A stretch of DNA of 64,000 nucleotides, taken from assembly GCF_036365525.1 (NCBI RefSeq), contig NC_090404.1, forward strand, positions 9,176,001-9,240,000, written 5' to 3'. The stretch is from Heterodontus francisci (taxonomy: Eukaryota). The notes beneath the pieces were generated by a model. That model saw only the letters and a program-made list of their open reading frames with translations, was not told where the DNA came from and did no database searches. Positions 33,502-42,650 of the stretch are shown in pieces. The translations under genes were made by a program, and so were the position numbers. The stretch's first letter is position 1, and every line of letters begins with the position of its first letter.

Positions 33502-33577
33502 AACCCAGTACTGTACCTGTCCTGGGAGTATTTGATGGGGACAGTGTAGAGTGAGCTTTACTCTGTATCAAGCCCCG
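33502..33577 (+). repeat. ~69-bp repeat unit (Tx1 target)
   Basis: CTGTACCTGTCCTGGGAGT.TTTGATGGG.ACAGTGTAGAG.GAGCTTTACTCTGTATC; also at 42334-42405, 50750-50815 and 55820-55995 (-). Confidence 0.9.
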
Positions 33578-34451
33578 TTTTTTTTAAGGAGGGCTTTATA
33601 CCCCAGGCCCCTTTTATATATTTTTTTGAGGGGGCCTTTATTCCTCAGGCCCCCTTTATATACATTTTAAATAAATAACTTTATTAAAAACAGATAAATG
33701 AAACAAAAACTCAAATTAAAACAGCATTGTCTGTATCGATGATGTACTCCAGCCCCTGCGGTGCCCACCTATCACGGAAGGCCTCAAGCGAGCTGGCAGA
33801 CAAGGCATGCTCCTTCTCCAGGGACACCCGGGCGCCAACATAACCTTGGAAGAGGGGCAGGCAATCAGGAGGGACGGACCCCCCGACGGCCCGCAGCATG
33901 AACCTGTCCAGGCCCAGAGGCAGTCCGACGAAGTGATCCTCCTCCCGGTCCGGCCCAGCCCCCCTCCGCACCAGGTGCCCAAAGATCAGGAGAGTGGGGC
34001 TGAAGTGCAACCAAAACTTGAGGAACAGCCCTTTTAAATACATGAACAGGGGCTGCAACCTCGCACATTCCATATATACATGGAACATGGACAGGCCCAG
34101 GCCTCAGAAAGTACACGCCGCCTATGAGACCGTGAACCTACTTAAAAGTCGATTGCATGAGACTGCCCCGTGCAACACCCTCCACCCCAGGTCCCCGATG
34201 TAAAGTGGTGGGGGGAGGGGGGACTCACACGTTGGGAGATCTCCACCGGTATTTCCCCTCACTGCCAGATGGCAACATCGACCACCACAGCGTATCTGGA
34301 TGGCAGAAGAGAGTGAGGAAGTGGAGAGTGTGCAGGAGCAGCCTGTACAGGAAACCCTTCTGTGTCATGTGGACTGGCATGACGGGCATTTCTGAGAGGC
34401 AGCTCAGGTTGTGTGGGTCTGCCTCCCGAGGAGGGTTTCGGTTGGAATCTA

Positions 34452-34641
34452 GAACACACTGCCTGAAGGGATGGTAGAGGCAGGAACCCTCACGATACTT
34501 AAGAAGTATTTAGATGAGCACTTGAAACACCAAGGCTACAGGCCAAGTGCTGGACAATTGGATTACAGTAGATAGGTACATGATGGCCAGCATGGACATG
34601 ATGGGCCGAAGGGCCTGTTTCTGTGCTGTATAACTCTATGA
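34452..34641 (+). mobile_element. CR1 3' end at the Tx1 internal deletion
   Basis: GAACACACTGCCTGAAGGGATGGTAGAGGCAGG...GGGCCGAAGGGCCTGTTTCTGTGCTGTATAACTCTATGA. Confidence 0.8.
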
Positions 34642-36362
34642 CGTCCATAACACCCTGAGGAACTCCACGGGCAGCCCGCCCAGCCCCGGGGATTTGCCCT
34701 TCAAGAGCTGGTGGATGGCGCCAGTCAGCTCTGCCAATGTGAATAGAGCCTCCAATCCTTCGGTGCCCTCCGGGCCAACCTTCAGCAGGCCTCCCACAAA
34801 ACTCTGTGTGCGTCTTTGCTGGATGGATCTAGAGAGAACAATGGACTGTAATAGGTATGGACCGATAGGCCCATTACCTCCGGATCCATGACGGAGGATC
34901 TGTCATTGGCCAATGAGCTGCTGACGGACCCCCCCACCATTTTTCCAGTGAATAGAAGAAGGGTAAGGCACGGTCCAAATCTTCCAGGATCTGGATCCGC
35001 GACCTCACATACGTGCCTTGGGACCTGACAAGCTGCAAATCCCTCAGCGCGCACTTCTCTTTGTACACTTGCCACAGGGCTGGGTCCATGACGGCATGAC
35101 TGAGGCGGGTCTCCAAGTTGAGCAACTCCCACACTAGGCGCCCGATCTAGGCTTCCCGCCTCTTGGTCGATCCCTTCGCGTACTCCCGACAGAAGACACA
35201 GATGTGAGTCTTGCCCACGTCCCGCTATAGCTACGAGGGGAAGCTCCCCTGCCTCCTTCTCCAGTTGGCCCAGAATCGACGGAACAAGTCCCAGAATTGT
35301 TCGTCCTCCAGCAGCCAGTTGCTAAAGTGCCAGTATGCGGACCCTGCCCACATGCGGAGTGGACTGAACTCCGCCCACACCAGGTGGTGGTCCAAGCATG
35401 ACACCAGCCGCGTGGAGGCTGCCGAGACGCGGGAGACGTATGCCGATGAAATGTAGAGGCGGTCGATTCGGGACCCTCCTCCTCCAGACCTGCAGGTGAA
35501 GGTGCTGGAGTCGGGATGGCGTCAGATGTCCACCGAGTTGTGGGAACTGAGCAGTTCCCTTAACTTCTCCACCGACGCTTGGCCACTCTGGGGACTGGGG
35601 CAATCCCTCACCTTGAGTGTACAGTTAAAATCCGCCCCCCTGAGGATGATGCACTCGCTGCGATCGATAGAGCTCAAGAGAGCAGACACTTTAGAGAAGC
35701 GCGCCTGCAACATGCCGGGCCTGGGTGTGTAAATGTTCACAAAATGGAGCGGCACACTACCCAGAGGAATGGCGAGATGGAGCAAGTGGACCGGCACAAG
35801 CTCCTTGAAACACAAGATCCCCAGCTGGAAAGTCAGGGCCAACAAGATAGCCACTCCACTAGAAATAGGGGTGAGGTGACTCATGTAGACCCTACCCTGC
35901 CACTCCAGGAGCCAGGTGCCTTCATCTCCTGCAACGGGGTGGGTTTCCTGCAGAAAGCTCACCGCATATCCCCCTTCCCTGAGGACTGAGTGATTGTGAA
36001 ATCTGTGGTGAGAGCCGCTGCTGCCATTGATGTTGAGGCTAGCTGTGGTTATCTTCATGTTCAAAAGTACTTACAAACCCATCACCAACATCCCACTGTG
36101 AGGAGGAAGCGGAAGTGCACCTCACCTTCCACTCCCCCAGCAACCCATTGAGGAATGCTTTAAACCGGCATCTCTCAACCTGTTTCATACCCACACCATT
36201 ACCCGCCTTCTTGAGGGTGGCACAGACGGACTGGATGATCAGTGCCAAACTCCAATCAGCGCCAATCAGTGCGGGAAAAAGAGTGGAAGGGCTATAGTCA
36301 TAGGGGATTCGATTGTAAGGGGAGTAGATAGGCGGTTCTGTGGTCGAAAACGAGACTCCCGA

Positions 36363-39754: not shown

Positions 39755-42333
39755 ATAGAGGATCTGGATCGGCGCAGGCTTGGAGGGCTGAAGGGCCTGT
39801 TCCTGTTCTGTAATTTTCTTTGTTAAACTCGACCACCAGGCGACGGCCAGCTGAACTTTATTGCGGTAACCCCTGCATGCCGTGAGGAAGTCCCGGAGCT
39901 CCACGATGGGGATGAGAGGAGGCTCGGTGCGAGGCAGGAGGGAGTCCACCGCCTCACTGGCGATGGATTCAAGATCATCCTCCATGCCCCACACCGAGTC
40001 CGTATCCTCCTCCGGGTTGTCACCACCAGTGGCCGACACATCCATCACACACTGTGGGGTGGACGTCCCAGCTGGTCCGGCCTCTGTCACAATCCCACCC
40101 ACAGGATTGATGGTGGAGCAGTCCTCTCTGGGTTCATCTGTTGGGCTGGAGCTTATGGGCACCAGCGGTTCAGCTCCCCCTCCATCTCAGTTCCCAGGCC
40201 ATTGAGCGGCCCAGGGGAGATGGCAGTTCCCCACTCTAGAAATCCAGATGGAGCCGAGACTGGAGGCAGAAAGAGGAGGCCATCTCCTGCTCCGCCAGGG
40301 CCCACAGACCCAGCAGACGGGGAATTAGGCAAATTGGCCTCAGGGTTGGGTACATCTTGGGCGGCAGCAACAGGCTGCTAGGAGGATTGACCCTCATAGG
40401 TCTCCCCCCCCCGCCCCACCCAGGACACCTGACCCATCTGCCAAAGGAGAGACTTCTCCCGTGGGGTCCACAGGTTCCCCCACCATGGGAGTTCCCAAAG
40501 CTACAGGGGCATCACTCCCCCCTCCATCCCGAGGGACAGAAGGTTCCCGCCCAGGGATTCAGGCCCACATGGTGCTGGTGGTAGGGGGAGCCCGAGGTCC
40601 CGTGCCAGGAGATGGGCCCTAAAACTCATGGCCCTCTTCAGAGAAGGGATGTCTCTTCCTCTTCCTGAGAGAGGGGTGGGGCGGCTCAGAGACTTCCATC
40701 TCAGCAGAAGCCTCTGCTTCTCTCTCCACGCCCCCTGCCCAGATTTCTTGGGCCTGAGCTCAGCCACGGGGCAGGTGGGATACCCTGGATGAGCCATAGG
40801 GCTGTGCTCAGGCTCAGAACTTTTTGCCATATCCAGGGGCGTGCCTTTGGGTGTTTTGCTTTGCGCCGTGCCTTCCTTCCACCTGGATGGGTCTCCCCCT
40901 CTCCGCCGGAGGCCGTGAAAACCACGGCCTCAGGTGCCACCTGAGTGGCAGTTGCTACAGGTGATGGGGGAGTAAGCAGAGGTGCAGAGGCGCCACTCTG
41001 AGCCCCCGAGCTGGAGTTGGTGGCCTGGAGGCTGGGGCAGTTCTTATGAACATGCCCCACCCGCTTACAGTCATGGCACTGCGCCCTGTCCAAGGTCCAG
41101 AAGATGCAGTATGCCGCCCCCAGAACTCCACATCAAATTGGCCTCTGTGACCTCCTCCCATGCCAGCTGCATAAAGAGCTGGCAGTGGAAGTAGTATACA
41201 TGCCAGGGGCTGTTCTCCCGAAGACTGAACGGGACTGGGGTGAGCCCTGTCTTTACCTCCTCCAGATAATGCAGGTGGGGAAGAGGGAGATCACCAGTAA
41301 TGAAGGGCGGGACATTGGACAAGGTGACCCACTGCGCAGTGGCCTCCAGGGGGCCACTGGCAGAAAGGTGCTGCCCACAGTGAGCCCCTTGCTCAGGGCC
41401 AAGGACACCGTCTACTCGGCCTTCAGGATAAACACCACCTTCCCGTACATTTTAGAGGCAGCAACAATGGCCAAGGGGCTGACAACCTTGGCCATTGCTT
41501 TCACGCATGACTCTATTGACTTGTTGGGGTGAATGTAGCTCTTGACTCCATGCTTTGAAGTTATCAGCGCAAACGGTGATGGGGCAACAAGTGCAACTGC
41601 AGCAGCCGGAGCAGCATGCATGTGAGGAGACCACACCACCGGCGAGGAGGGGCTTGCCATGGGGTCAAAGAGCCATACCCACCCCTCAGAAACAAAACAA
41701 ATAACAGTTTTTTAAAAAACTTAAGCAATATGATGGGCACATGGGAGTAGAGGAGGATAGGGGTGAAAAGAAAAAGGAGAGAGAATAGGTGGCTGAGTGG
41801 TGGAAGGGAAAGGCTACGAGGATGTTGCTCTATGATTGGTGGTTGGAGCACCTTACTGCAGAATCCAAAGTCCAGTCTTCCAGTCAAGGGAGGGTTCTTC
41901 ACCTGGGTCGGCTGGAGTCACCCGATTCTCACCTTTTCCTGCTGATGTATAAAGACTTTCTTCAGCCAGGCAGCTCCAGCCGTCCTGAGCCATGCAGTTG
42001 GGGTGGGGAGGGAGCCCCCTTTGTGCAGGATGGACAAAAATACACAGGAGCAAGTACAGGGGCTCCCTATCGAATTTGGCAGCCCCACCCCTGCAGCTTC
42101 CAGGGCCCTCCTCCCTCCCCCAACAGTTCAAACAAAAAACAGTTCTCTGGTCCTCCAACACCCACCTCTTCAAAATAACTTTTTGTTTTGTCTGTTCGTG
42201 AAAAATACAAACAGTTCCACAGTTGACGTTGCAGCTCTATGCTCTCTCCTCTCCAGTTGCAGCTCTCACCAACCTGCTTAGGTGCAGCTATTTTGCCTAA
42301 TTGCACACAGGAAGTGCTCCAAACTCTCCAGCC

Positions 42334-42405
42334 AATCCCATGCTGTACCTGTCCTGGGAGTGTTTGATGGGCCAGTATAGAGGGAGCTTTACTCTGTATC
42401 TAACC
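42334..42405 (+). repeat. ~69-bp repeat unit between two Tx1 copies
   Basis: Same unit as 33502-33577. Confidence 0.9.
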
Positions 42406-42650
42406 TTTTTTTGCTTTTTTTAAGGTGGCCTTTATACCCCAGACCTCTCTTATTTTGTTGAAGGGGCCTTTATTCCTCAGGCCCCCTTTATATACATTTT
42501 GCATAAATAACTTTATTAAAATAGATAAATAAAACAAAAATCAAATCAAAATACAATTTCGGCATCTCTGTACTCCAGCCCCTGCGGTACTCACCCATTG
42601 TGGAAGGCCTCAAGTGAACCAGCGGACATTGCATGCTCCTTCTCCAGTGA
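42406..42650 (-). mobile_element. 3' end of a second copy of the same Tx1 family
   Basis: Poly(A), 3' UTR and last ORF2 codons align with 33578-33825. Confidence 0.85.

Follow-up and report, generated by a model that had tools for sequence, protein, structure and literature searches.

A Tx1L-lineage LINE of Heterodontus francisci prefers a dispersed 69-bp minisatellite and very probably carries it to new sites

Two Tx1 copies at a 69-bp unit

The window analysed here, a 64,000-nucleotide stretch of the 6.0-Gb genome of Heterodontus francisci (contig NC_090404.1, here C34:9176001-9240000), lies amid C2H2 zinc-finger gene clusters and contains two copies of a long interspersed nuclear element (LINE) of the Tx1 clade, each joined to a unit of a 69-bp minisatellite. 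A preliminary description of this DNA had proposed that two diverged copies of one family have their poly(A) ends at the same point of the unit and in the same orientation, that the 5' end of the first copy rejoins the unit, and that empty units lie nearby; each of these observations was borne out. Identity between the two 3' ends is 82.6% over 253 bp, and between the units that precede them (units 1 and 2) it is 86%. The features, by window position and strand, are these (ORF, open reading frame; RT, reverse transcriptase):

33487..33500, minus: 14-bp remnant, AATCAGGCAGCAGC, immediately preceding unit 1 and matching the 5' tip found in a sister subfamily of Tx1
33508..33577, plus: 69-bp minisatellite unit 1, left half-site of copy 1, 87% identical to the array at 55921-55990
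33578..33585, minus: poly(A) tail of Tx1 copy 1, joined after ...CCCCG, by direct reading of the sequence
33586..42336, minus: Tx1 copy 1, decayed but spanning the full length of the element, at 73-85% DNA identity with L173, an open-frame copy (blastn, tblastn)
33711..36058, minus: ORF2 remains of copy 1, APE endonuclease, residues 1-479 and then 1004-1245, with frameshifts and stops
34442..34644, plus: CR1-like 3' fragment inside the ORF2 deletion, matching other CR1-type ends of the window; about 1.57 kb of L173 is missing here
36096..41660, minus: ORF1 remains of copy 1, divided by the CR1 insertion; the CCHC knuckle is intact in L173
36253..39824, plus: younger CR1-type LINE nested in Tx1 ORF1, with a GDSL-esterase ORF, an open 993-aa APE and RT ORF (ORF2) and a 6-bp duplication, AAACTC
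42331..42341, plus: 5' junction of copy 1, where the element tip CCAAT is followed by CCCA and TGCTG; GGGATT of the tip resembles GGGGTT of the target
42340..42405, plus: minisatellite unit 2, right half-site of copy 1 and left half-site of copy 2, 94% identical to 55922-55986
42406..42656, minus: Tx1 copy 2, comprising the poly(A) tail and the 235 bp at the 3' end, with 82.6% identity to copy 1
42656..43667, no strand assigned: unrelated repeat truncating copy 2, 80% identical to 56807-57777
50747..50815, plus: degenerate empty unit, by within-window sequence comparison
55822..55999, minus: empty array of 2.7 units in the opposite orientation, by within-window sequence comparison

Unit 1 terminates in CTCTGTATCAAGCCCCG and is followed by T8 and the Tx1 3' untranslated region (UTR), while unit 2 terminates in CTCTGTATCTAACC and is followed by a T-run (42406-42421) and the second Tx1 3' end (42422-42656), so that the insertion point is ...TAACCCCG^TGCTG at both 3' ends. 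At its far end copy 1 stops at 42336 (CAGCCAAT) and passes into CCCA TGCTGTACC of unit 2. The remnant before unit 1 carries no T-run, and the same tip, AATCAGGCAGCAGC, abuts the unit at full-length 5' junctions in loci L201 and L204. Copy 2 ends abruptly at 42656 without a downstream half-site; a continuation of the zinc-finger gene 3' flank beyond it, sought in order to bound the composite, was not found. Copy 1 is a dead element. Its endonuclease is 40% identical to Xenopus Tx1L ORF2, and ORF2 residues ~480-1003, comprising most of the RT domain, have been lost, with the 200-bp CR1-like piece in their place.

Other features of the window stand apart from this composite. The region 1870-47900 contains several copies of C2H2 zinc-finger genes whose 3' flanks are related; the copy at 32623-33492 is interrupted by stops and frameshifts and terminates at the Tx1 composite. 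Copies 97% identical to the nested CR1-type LINE are widespread elsewhere and end in (CTTTGTT)n. A 604-aa open stretch at 51440-53254 (minus strand), with RVT_1 and zf-RVT domains and 33% identity to Tx1 ORF2, belongs to another L1/Tx1-type LINE, and minisatellites unrelated to the target unit occur at 50492-50644, 30965-31165 and 61780-61916 (periods 62, 30 and 36 bp). The Tx1 3' UTR itself contains a 42-60 bp tandem duplication with repeated AATAAA (33579-33662; L173:9380-9460), and Tx1 subfamilies vary in tail start position.

The family and its preferred insertion base

Genome-wide, 2,833 candidates were found by the Tx1 3' end and 1,062 by the 5' end, and three of the copies fetched (L171, L173 and L174) retain an open ORF2 of about 1,250 codons. 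The L173 ORF2 (1245 aa) matches PF03372 (APE) at residues 6-226 and PF00078 (RT) at 511-762; its ORF1 (680 aa) gave no match in a Pfam search and contains, by direct reading, a CCHC zinc knuckle of the form C-x2-C-x4-H-x4-C. Part of the family ORF2 is 93% identical to a predicted H. francisci protein. The assignment to the Tx1 clade in the preliminary description is upheld, since the ORF2 of open-frame copies shows 50% full-length identity to Xenopus Tx1L ORF2 (YTX2), and an RT tree of 32 rows, including 31 of 120 listed hits, without named Keno, Kibi, Koshi or Dewa rows and with the CR1 outgroup dropped for its short alignment, places the family with Tx1L ORF2, one sturgeon and four turtle proteins in a clade supported at 100/100. 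The poly(A) tail, 5' truncation and target-site duplication characteristic of Tx1-clade elements are all present, the last as 26 off-target duplications of 9-17 bp. Together these data support a Tx1-clade LINE of the Tx1L lineage. The hairpin loop of its endonuclease is 7 residues long, while that of Tx1L has 11.

The junction seen in the window recurs across the genome. Two sets of 30 copies, ranked by likeness of their 3' or 5' ends and both including the window copy, were read for flanking sequence. Among the 3' ends, 22/30 have, within 90 nt, a unit end with a T-run behind it, while only 1/30 CR1 3' ends satisfied a looser junction rule and no CR1 control locus (0/30) had any unit within 1.5 kb. 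The 5' ends abut a unit start in 21 cases, a further T-run in 7 and a worn unit in 2 (a duplicated pair). Exact patterns recovered 1,834 filled and 3,338 empty junctions genome-wide, together with 755 exact 5'-tip junctions of the GCAGCCAA subfamilies; the reversed-pattern controls returned 0 in every case. Matching junctions are spread over dozens of contigs, which excludes a single old tandem duplication as their source, and joints of unit, T-run and Tx1 3' end also occur in contigs of two other organisms, where the 5' side is represented by one truncated-copy joint only; the much greater depth over the unit in these public contigs, which may derive from RNA, is given no weight here. Units and on-target elements are concentrated within about 20 Mb of large-contig ends and on small contigs.

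The unit has a period of 67-70 bp. A search of Rfam with it gave no match at E<=5 and a two-unit fold was no better than shuffles (z -0.97), so that it does not correspond to a known RNA. For the same period and lack of an Rfam match, and for want of conserved flanks, it is not one of the targets of Keno, Kibi, Koshi, Dewa or Tx1-Mar (U2 small nuclear RNA (snRNA), microsatellite, tRNA spacer, Mariner). It might instead be an internal repeat of a larger DNA transposon that spreads the target, and the nearest named relative, Tx1L, does insert into a DNA transposon according to the available text of PMC1950540 and PMC4494074. However, a comparison of 323 array flanks revealed no conserved flanking sequence: only 16 junction-adjacent pairs were alike, without a common terminus, and we rejected this explanation as very improbable. 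The 16 pairs resemble what we take to be short interspersed element (SINE) or CR1-type insertions, or Tx1 tips.

Tx1 is not the only sequence joined at this base. Among 260 distinct unit-end/T-run junctions in the gathered loci, a set enriched for T-runs followed by units, the T-run leads to a unit in 126, to a Tx1 3' end in 86, to other sequence in 40 and to minor classes in 8. The 40 foreign cargoes carry AATAAA or ATTAAA near the tail in 11 cases, compared with 7/120 control windows, and one locus holds a full U6 snRNA retrocopy with a T-run at the insertion base (L276:2008-2114; Rfam RF00026, 90.8 bits). To judge from these footprints, unrelated RNAs are pasted at the same base as Tx1. U6 and the unit have a 9-letter word, GATACAGAG, in common, probably by chance. 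Short Tx1 5' tips (10-70 bp) are also found at target junctions, mostly right behind a T-run (L006, L041, L058, L095, L145, L156 and window 33487-33500), and may reflect read-through into an adjacent copy or short tailed 5' RNAs.

These junctions bear on a second alternative, in which the unit is a terminal part of the element, as a 3' or 5' tandem repeat, and no real target preference exists. One subfamily (L171-L174 and others) does have a fixed partial unit between two tails, and many copies lie away from the unit, as described below. Against it, 13/22 off-target copies have no unit at all, 3,338 exact junctions are empty, and host-type RNAs and U6 occur at the same base. Moreover, at truncated copies (L015, L094, L131 and L201) the unit resumes in phase beyond a duplication of 6-13 bp. 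The foreign cargo at one base and the in-phase rejoining together refute this alternative, which we consider very improbable. Full-length copies show only CCC(N)G at the 5' junction, where the tip resembles the target; we infer that such junctions arise by homology-assisted closure.

How strictly the site is used was assessed in a genome-order sample, consisting of all 39 distinct places first listed for the exact 3'-end pattern, read by eye, with L350 reassigned. On-target copies number 16, all at C1 5.8-16.8 Mb; one is ambiguous; 13 are off-target and bare; and 9 are off-target with unit sequence. The 22 off-target copies, located elsewhere on C1 and on C2, prove short or interrupted wherever their far end can be seen. 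Interiors of the two largest contigs are over-represented in this sample, and the genome-wide on-target share is therefore probably above 16/39. Conversely, because the unit is often carried within the insert, unit-flanked 3' ends overstate genuine on-target use; several of the 16 on-target copies extend past the fetched DNA and may conceal longer transductions. Off-target duplications (n=26) measure 9-17 bp and are exactly 13 bp in 12/26. The off-target sites have T at +1 in 23/26, G or T at +2 in 24/26 and C or G at -1 in 22/26 (T at -1 being excluded by definition), a consensus that appears to be a weak echo of CCCCG^TGCTG.

In the available text of PMC4494074, a Tx1 family counts as target-specific when one sequence type occurs in >20% of flanks; the corresponding figures here are 22/30 and 28/30 in the likeness-ranked sets and 16/39 in genome order. 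Strict specificity of the Tx1L or R2 type, with nearly all copies on target, is not what we observed (22/39 off-target). The family is, on these flanks, target-preferring rather than strictly specific. Of the earlier proposal of a minisatellite-specific family, the fixed base within the 69-bp unit stands and strict specificity does not. The two observations named in advance as telling against it, unrelated flanks in most copies and a unit that is part of the element, were each found in part, in the form of those 22/39 off-target 3' ends and of unit sequence carried by 9 of the 22.

Unit sequence carried within inserts

A frequent order at the junctions is T-run, partial or whole units, T-run and Tx1 3' end. 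When such T-led composites lie in unrelated DNA, they are bounded by a duplication in 8/24 cases, compared with 1/186 shuffled pairs, although L048, among the 8, is unconvincing on visual inspection; a second set of new loci gave 6/14 against 7/182. When 208 right boundaries were scanned more strictly, 21 poly(T) inserts bounded by duplications came to light at non-unit sites; 13 of these bear units, with target duplications of 11-17 bp. Two of the unit-bearing inserts, L142 and L285, contain no Tx1 sequence; L142 comprises an array of about four units that has a tail and retains three intact junctions. The inserts at L350 and L162 also hold 30 and 81 bp of foreign flank, respectively, and the L350 array turned out to sit inside a longer duplication-bounded insert. 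Paralogous repeats cover the rebuilt empty site, without units, for 9/15 inserts tested. Downstream flank thus lies between two tails within one duplication and is missing from the empty site, which is the arrangement expected of 3' transduction.

A plainer account is that an older host minisatellite spread at the DNA level and that the element merely prefers it, with T-run and partial-unit structures representing aborted poly(A)-only insertions accompanied by target deletion or long duplication, and with seeding a rare side effect of no weight for the spread of the repeat. Bare tails with 10-12 bp duplications do occur (L090 and L102), many arrays begin at arbitrary unit positions without a T-run, and on-target copies are concentrated towards a chromosome end rich in arrays. 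This account cannot yield the 13 unit-bearing, duplication-bounded inserts in unrelated DNA or their empty paralogues, and unit sequence in 9/22 off-target copies is not rare. Furthermore, variant sharing between a partial unit behind a T-run and the unit in front of that T-run is 7/97, some of the 97 coming from misaligned T-rich rows, compared with 52/259 between neighbouring units; this low sharing rules out local or long duplication as the origin of the partial units. Site preference without transport is refuted as a full account and seems to us unlikely; its weaker form, in which most arrays have another origin, is taken up below.

We favour, with good confidence, the explanation that a Tx1L-lineage LINE prefers ...TAACCCCG^TGCTG in the dispersed 69-bp minisatellite and carries the minisatellite to new sites, likely by 3' read-through transduction. 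On the evidence of the inserts, the element likely plants new landing sites for itself. Tail joins fall at unit positions 21-49, just downstream of AGTAAA on the element strand, in 966 cases compared with 157 at positions 1-21, a contrast between two patterns unequal in strictness and limited to reverse-strand matches, since forward-strand gapped-pattern counts were inflated by overlapping starts. These positions would fit polyadenylation inside the unit.

The events might then run as follows. The APE endonuclease would nick after CCCCG, and the free end would prime reverse transcription on the poly(A) tail. A second nick about 13 bp upstream would leave the 9-17 bp duplications whose footprint is seen at truncated and off-target copies, while full-length copies would be closed at the 5' end by pairing of the tip GGGATT with the target GGGGTT, leaving a 1-5 bp duplication. 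Transcripts would often overrun the element tail into downstream units and be polyadenylated there, mostly just past the AGTAAA of a unit. Such read-through RNAs, to judge by their footprints, would be pasted into existing arrays, which lengthen, or at loose S^TG/TT off-target sites, where they would found arrays with intact junctions. As a proposal, planted arrays would become later targets.

The origin of the arrays and known parallels

That the element adds to arrays and founds them is certain; we do not claim that it made most of them. Among 40 arrays picked by an empty junction alone, 21 touch Tx1 sequence and 30 have either Tx1 or a T-run. A more far-reaching interpretation is that the 69-bp minisatellite is mainly the product of a LINE that founds, lengthens and re-uses its own landing arrays, a self-sustaining loop spread chiefly via RNA; we regard it as conceivable but somewhat doubtful.

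Several observations weigh against these interpretations. With respect to the arrays, 10/40 have neither a T-run nor Tx1, as expected if an older repeat spread on its own, and only 4/40 are demonstrably planted (L191, L137=L103, L139 and L135=L350). Duplications around arrays that begin with a unit occur at the null rate (5/112 versus 24/891). No planted array was seen to have been struck later, the nested tails of L103 fitting either serial read-through or later hits. With respect to transport, polyadenylation in the unit is deduced from footprints in the DNA; besides the unequal patterns behind the tail counts, clustering at 10-30 nt after AGTAAA is modest (18/38 locus-level events, at loci unselected for clustering). 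A full junction is present in only 2/9 unit-carrying off-target copies of the genome-order sample (L139 and L350), and no duplication was found in 7/21 off-target candidates, with 1 more ambiguous and L347 settled by the stricter scan. Finally, the preference cannot be explained by the endonuclease alone, given how weak the off-target consensus is.

Two further structures were noted among the arrays. In L082-L088 (C1:9.681 Mb), at C47 2.216 and 10.431 Mb and at C34 0.852 Mb, a T-run with a partial unit has itself become a tandem repeat with a period of ~46-160 bp, forming new minisatellites from insertion products. In L090 and L115-L117 an inverted unit block lies within a longer array region.

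The closest parallel is Tx1L of Xenopus laevis, whose target is an internal repeat of the Tx1D DNA transposon and whose target duplication is 23 bp in PTR-1. The shark family resembles it in its ORF2 and RT clade, its APE and RT domains, its poly(A) tail and its fixed base in a repeat. It differs in that its target is a dispersed 69-bp minisatellite without conserved flanks, its duplication is ~13 bp, about half of the sampled copies are off-target, and the target is transduced. As far as the available text goes, Tx1L inserts at a fixed base in another repeat, Tx1D (PMC1950540, PMC4494074), and its endonuclease is specific and has the 11-residue loop (Repanas 2007, PMC1950540).

The accessible parts of Kojima 2015 list DNA transposons, U2, microsatellites and satellites ('Sat', Fig. 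3 legend) as Tx1 targets (PMC4494074). Keno (U2), Kibi and Koshi (microsatellites), Tx1-Mar with SINEU, and the 'Sat' Tx1 families share with the shark family repeat targeting, tandem stacking and trans-mobilised cargo at the same site; their targets are different, and the founding of new target copies by them is not described in those parts (PMC4494074). R2 is co-transcribed with target sequence, according to the same portions of that paper (PMC4494074).

In this respect the shark element would be like R2, R1 and SART, which have flanking target in their RNA and close the 5' junction by homology. R1/SART-type elements are co-transcribed with their targets, and rDNA and telomere targets are maintained by the host, whereas the shark target is apparently made in part by the element. 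L1 3' and orphan transduction likewise produces double poly(A) tails, carried downstream flank and element-free orphan inserts, all seen here with 9-17 bp duplications; the difference from L1 is that the flank moved here is a sequence into which the element itself preferentially inserts, and this would make a feedback loop. Repeat-targeting Tx1 elements and 3' transduction are each known separately. Our literature search found no description of this Tx1 family, its target or target self-seeding, though the supplements of PMC4494074 may name satellite-targeting Tx1 families, and no comparable self-seeding loop was found in the available text of a review of transposon-derived repeats (PMC9659126).

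The wider interest of the family lies in what such behaviour would imply. The open-frame copies, with a shortened glycine-rich aiming loop, can be set beside the well-studied Tx1L and L1 endonucleases and make target choice testable, and a machinery able to join unrelated RNAs to one particular base has relevance to site-directed gene insertion. Target transduction, if true, would be a direct RNA route for minisatellite dispersal. Site-specific LINEs have been thought to depend on targets that the host keeps multicopy; a family that plants its own, if confirmed, would show in what way a non-essential repeat can sustain target specificity, and a self-sustaining loop, if true, would mean that a retrotransposon builds its own genomic safe harbour.

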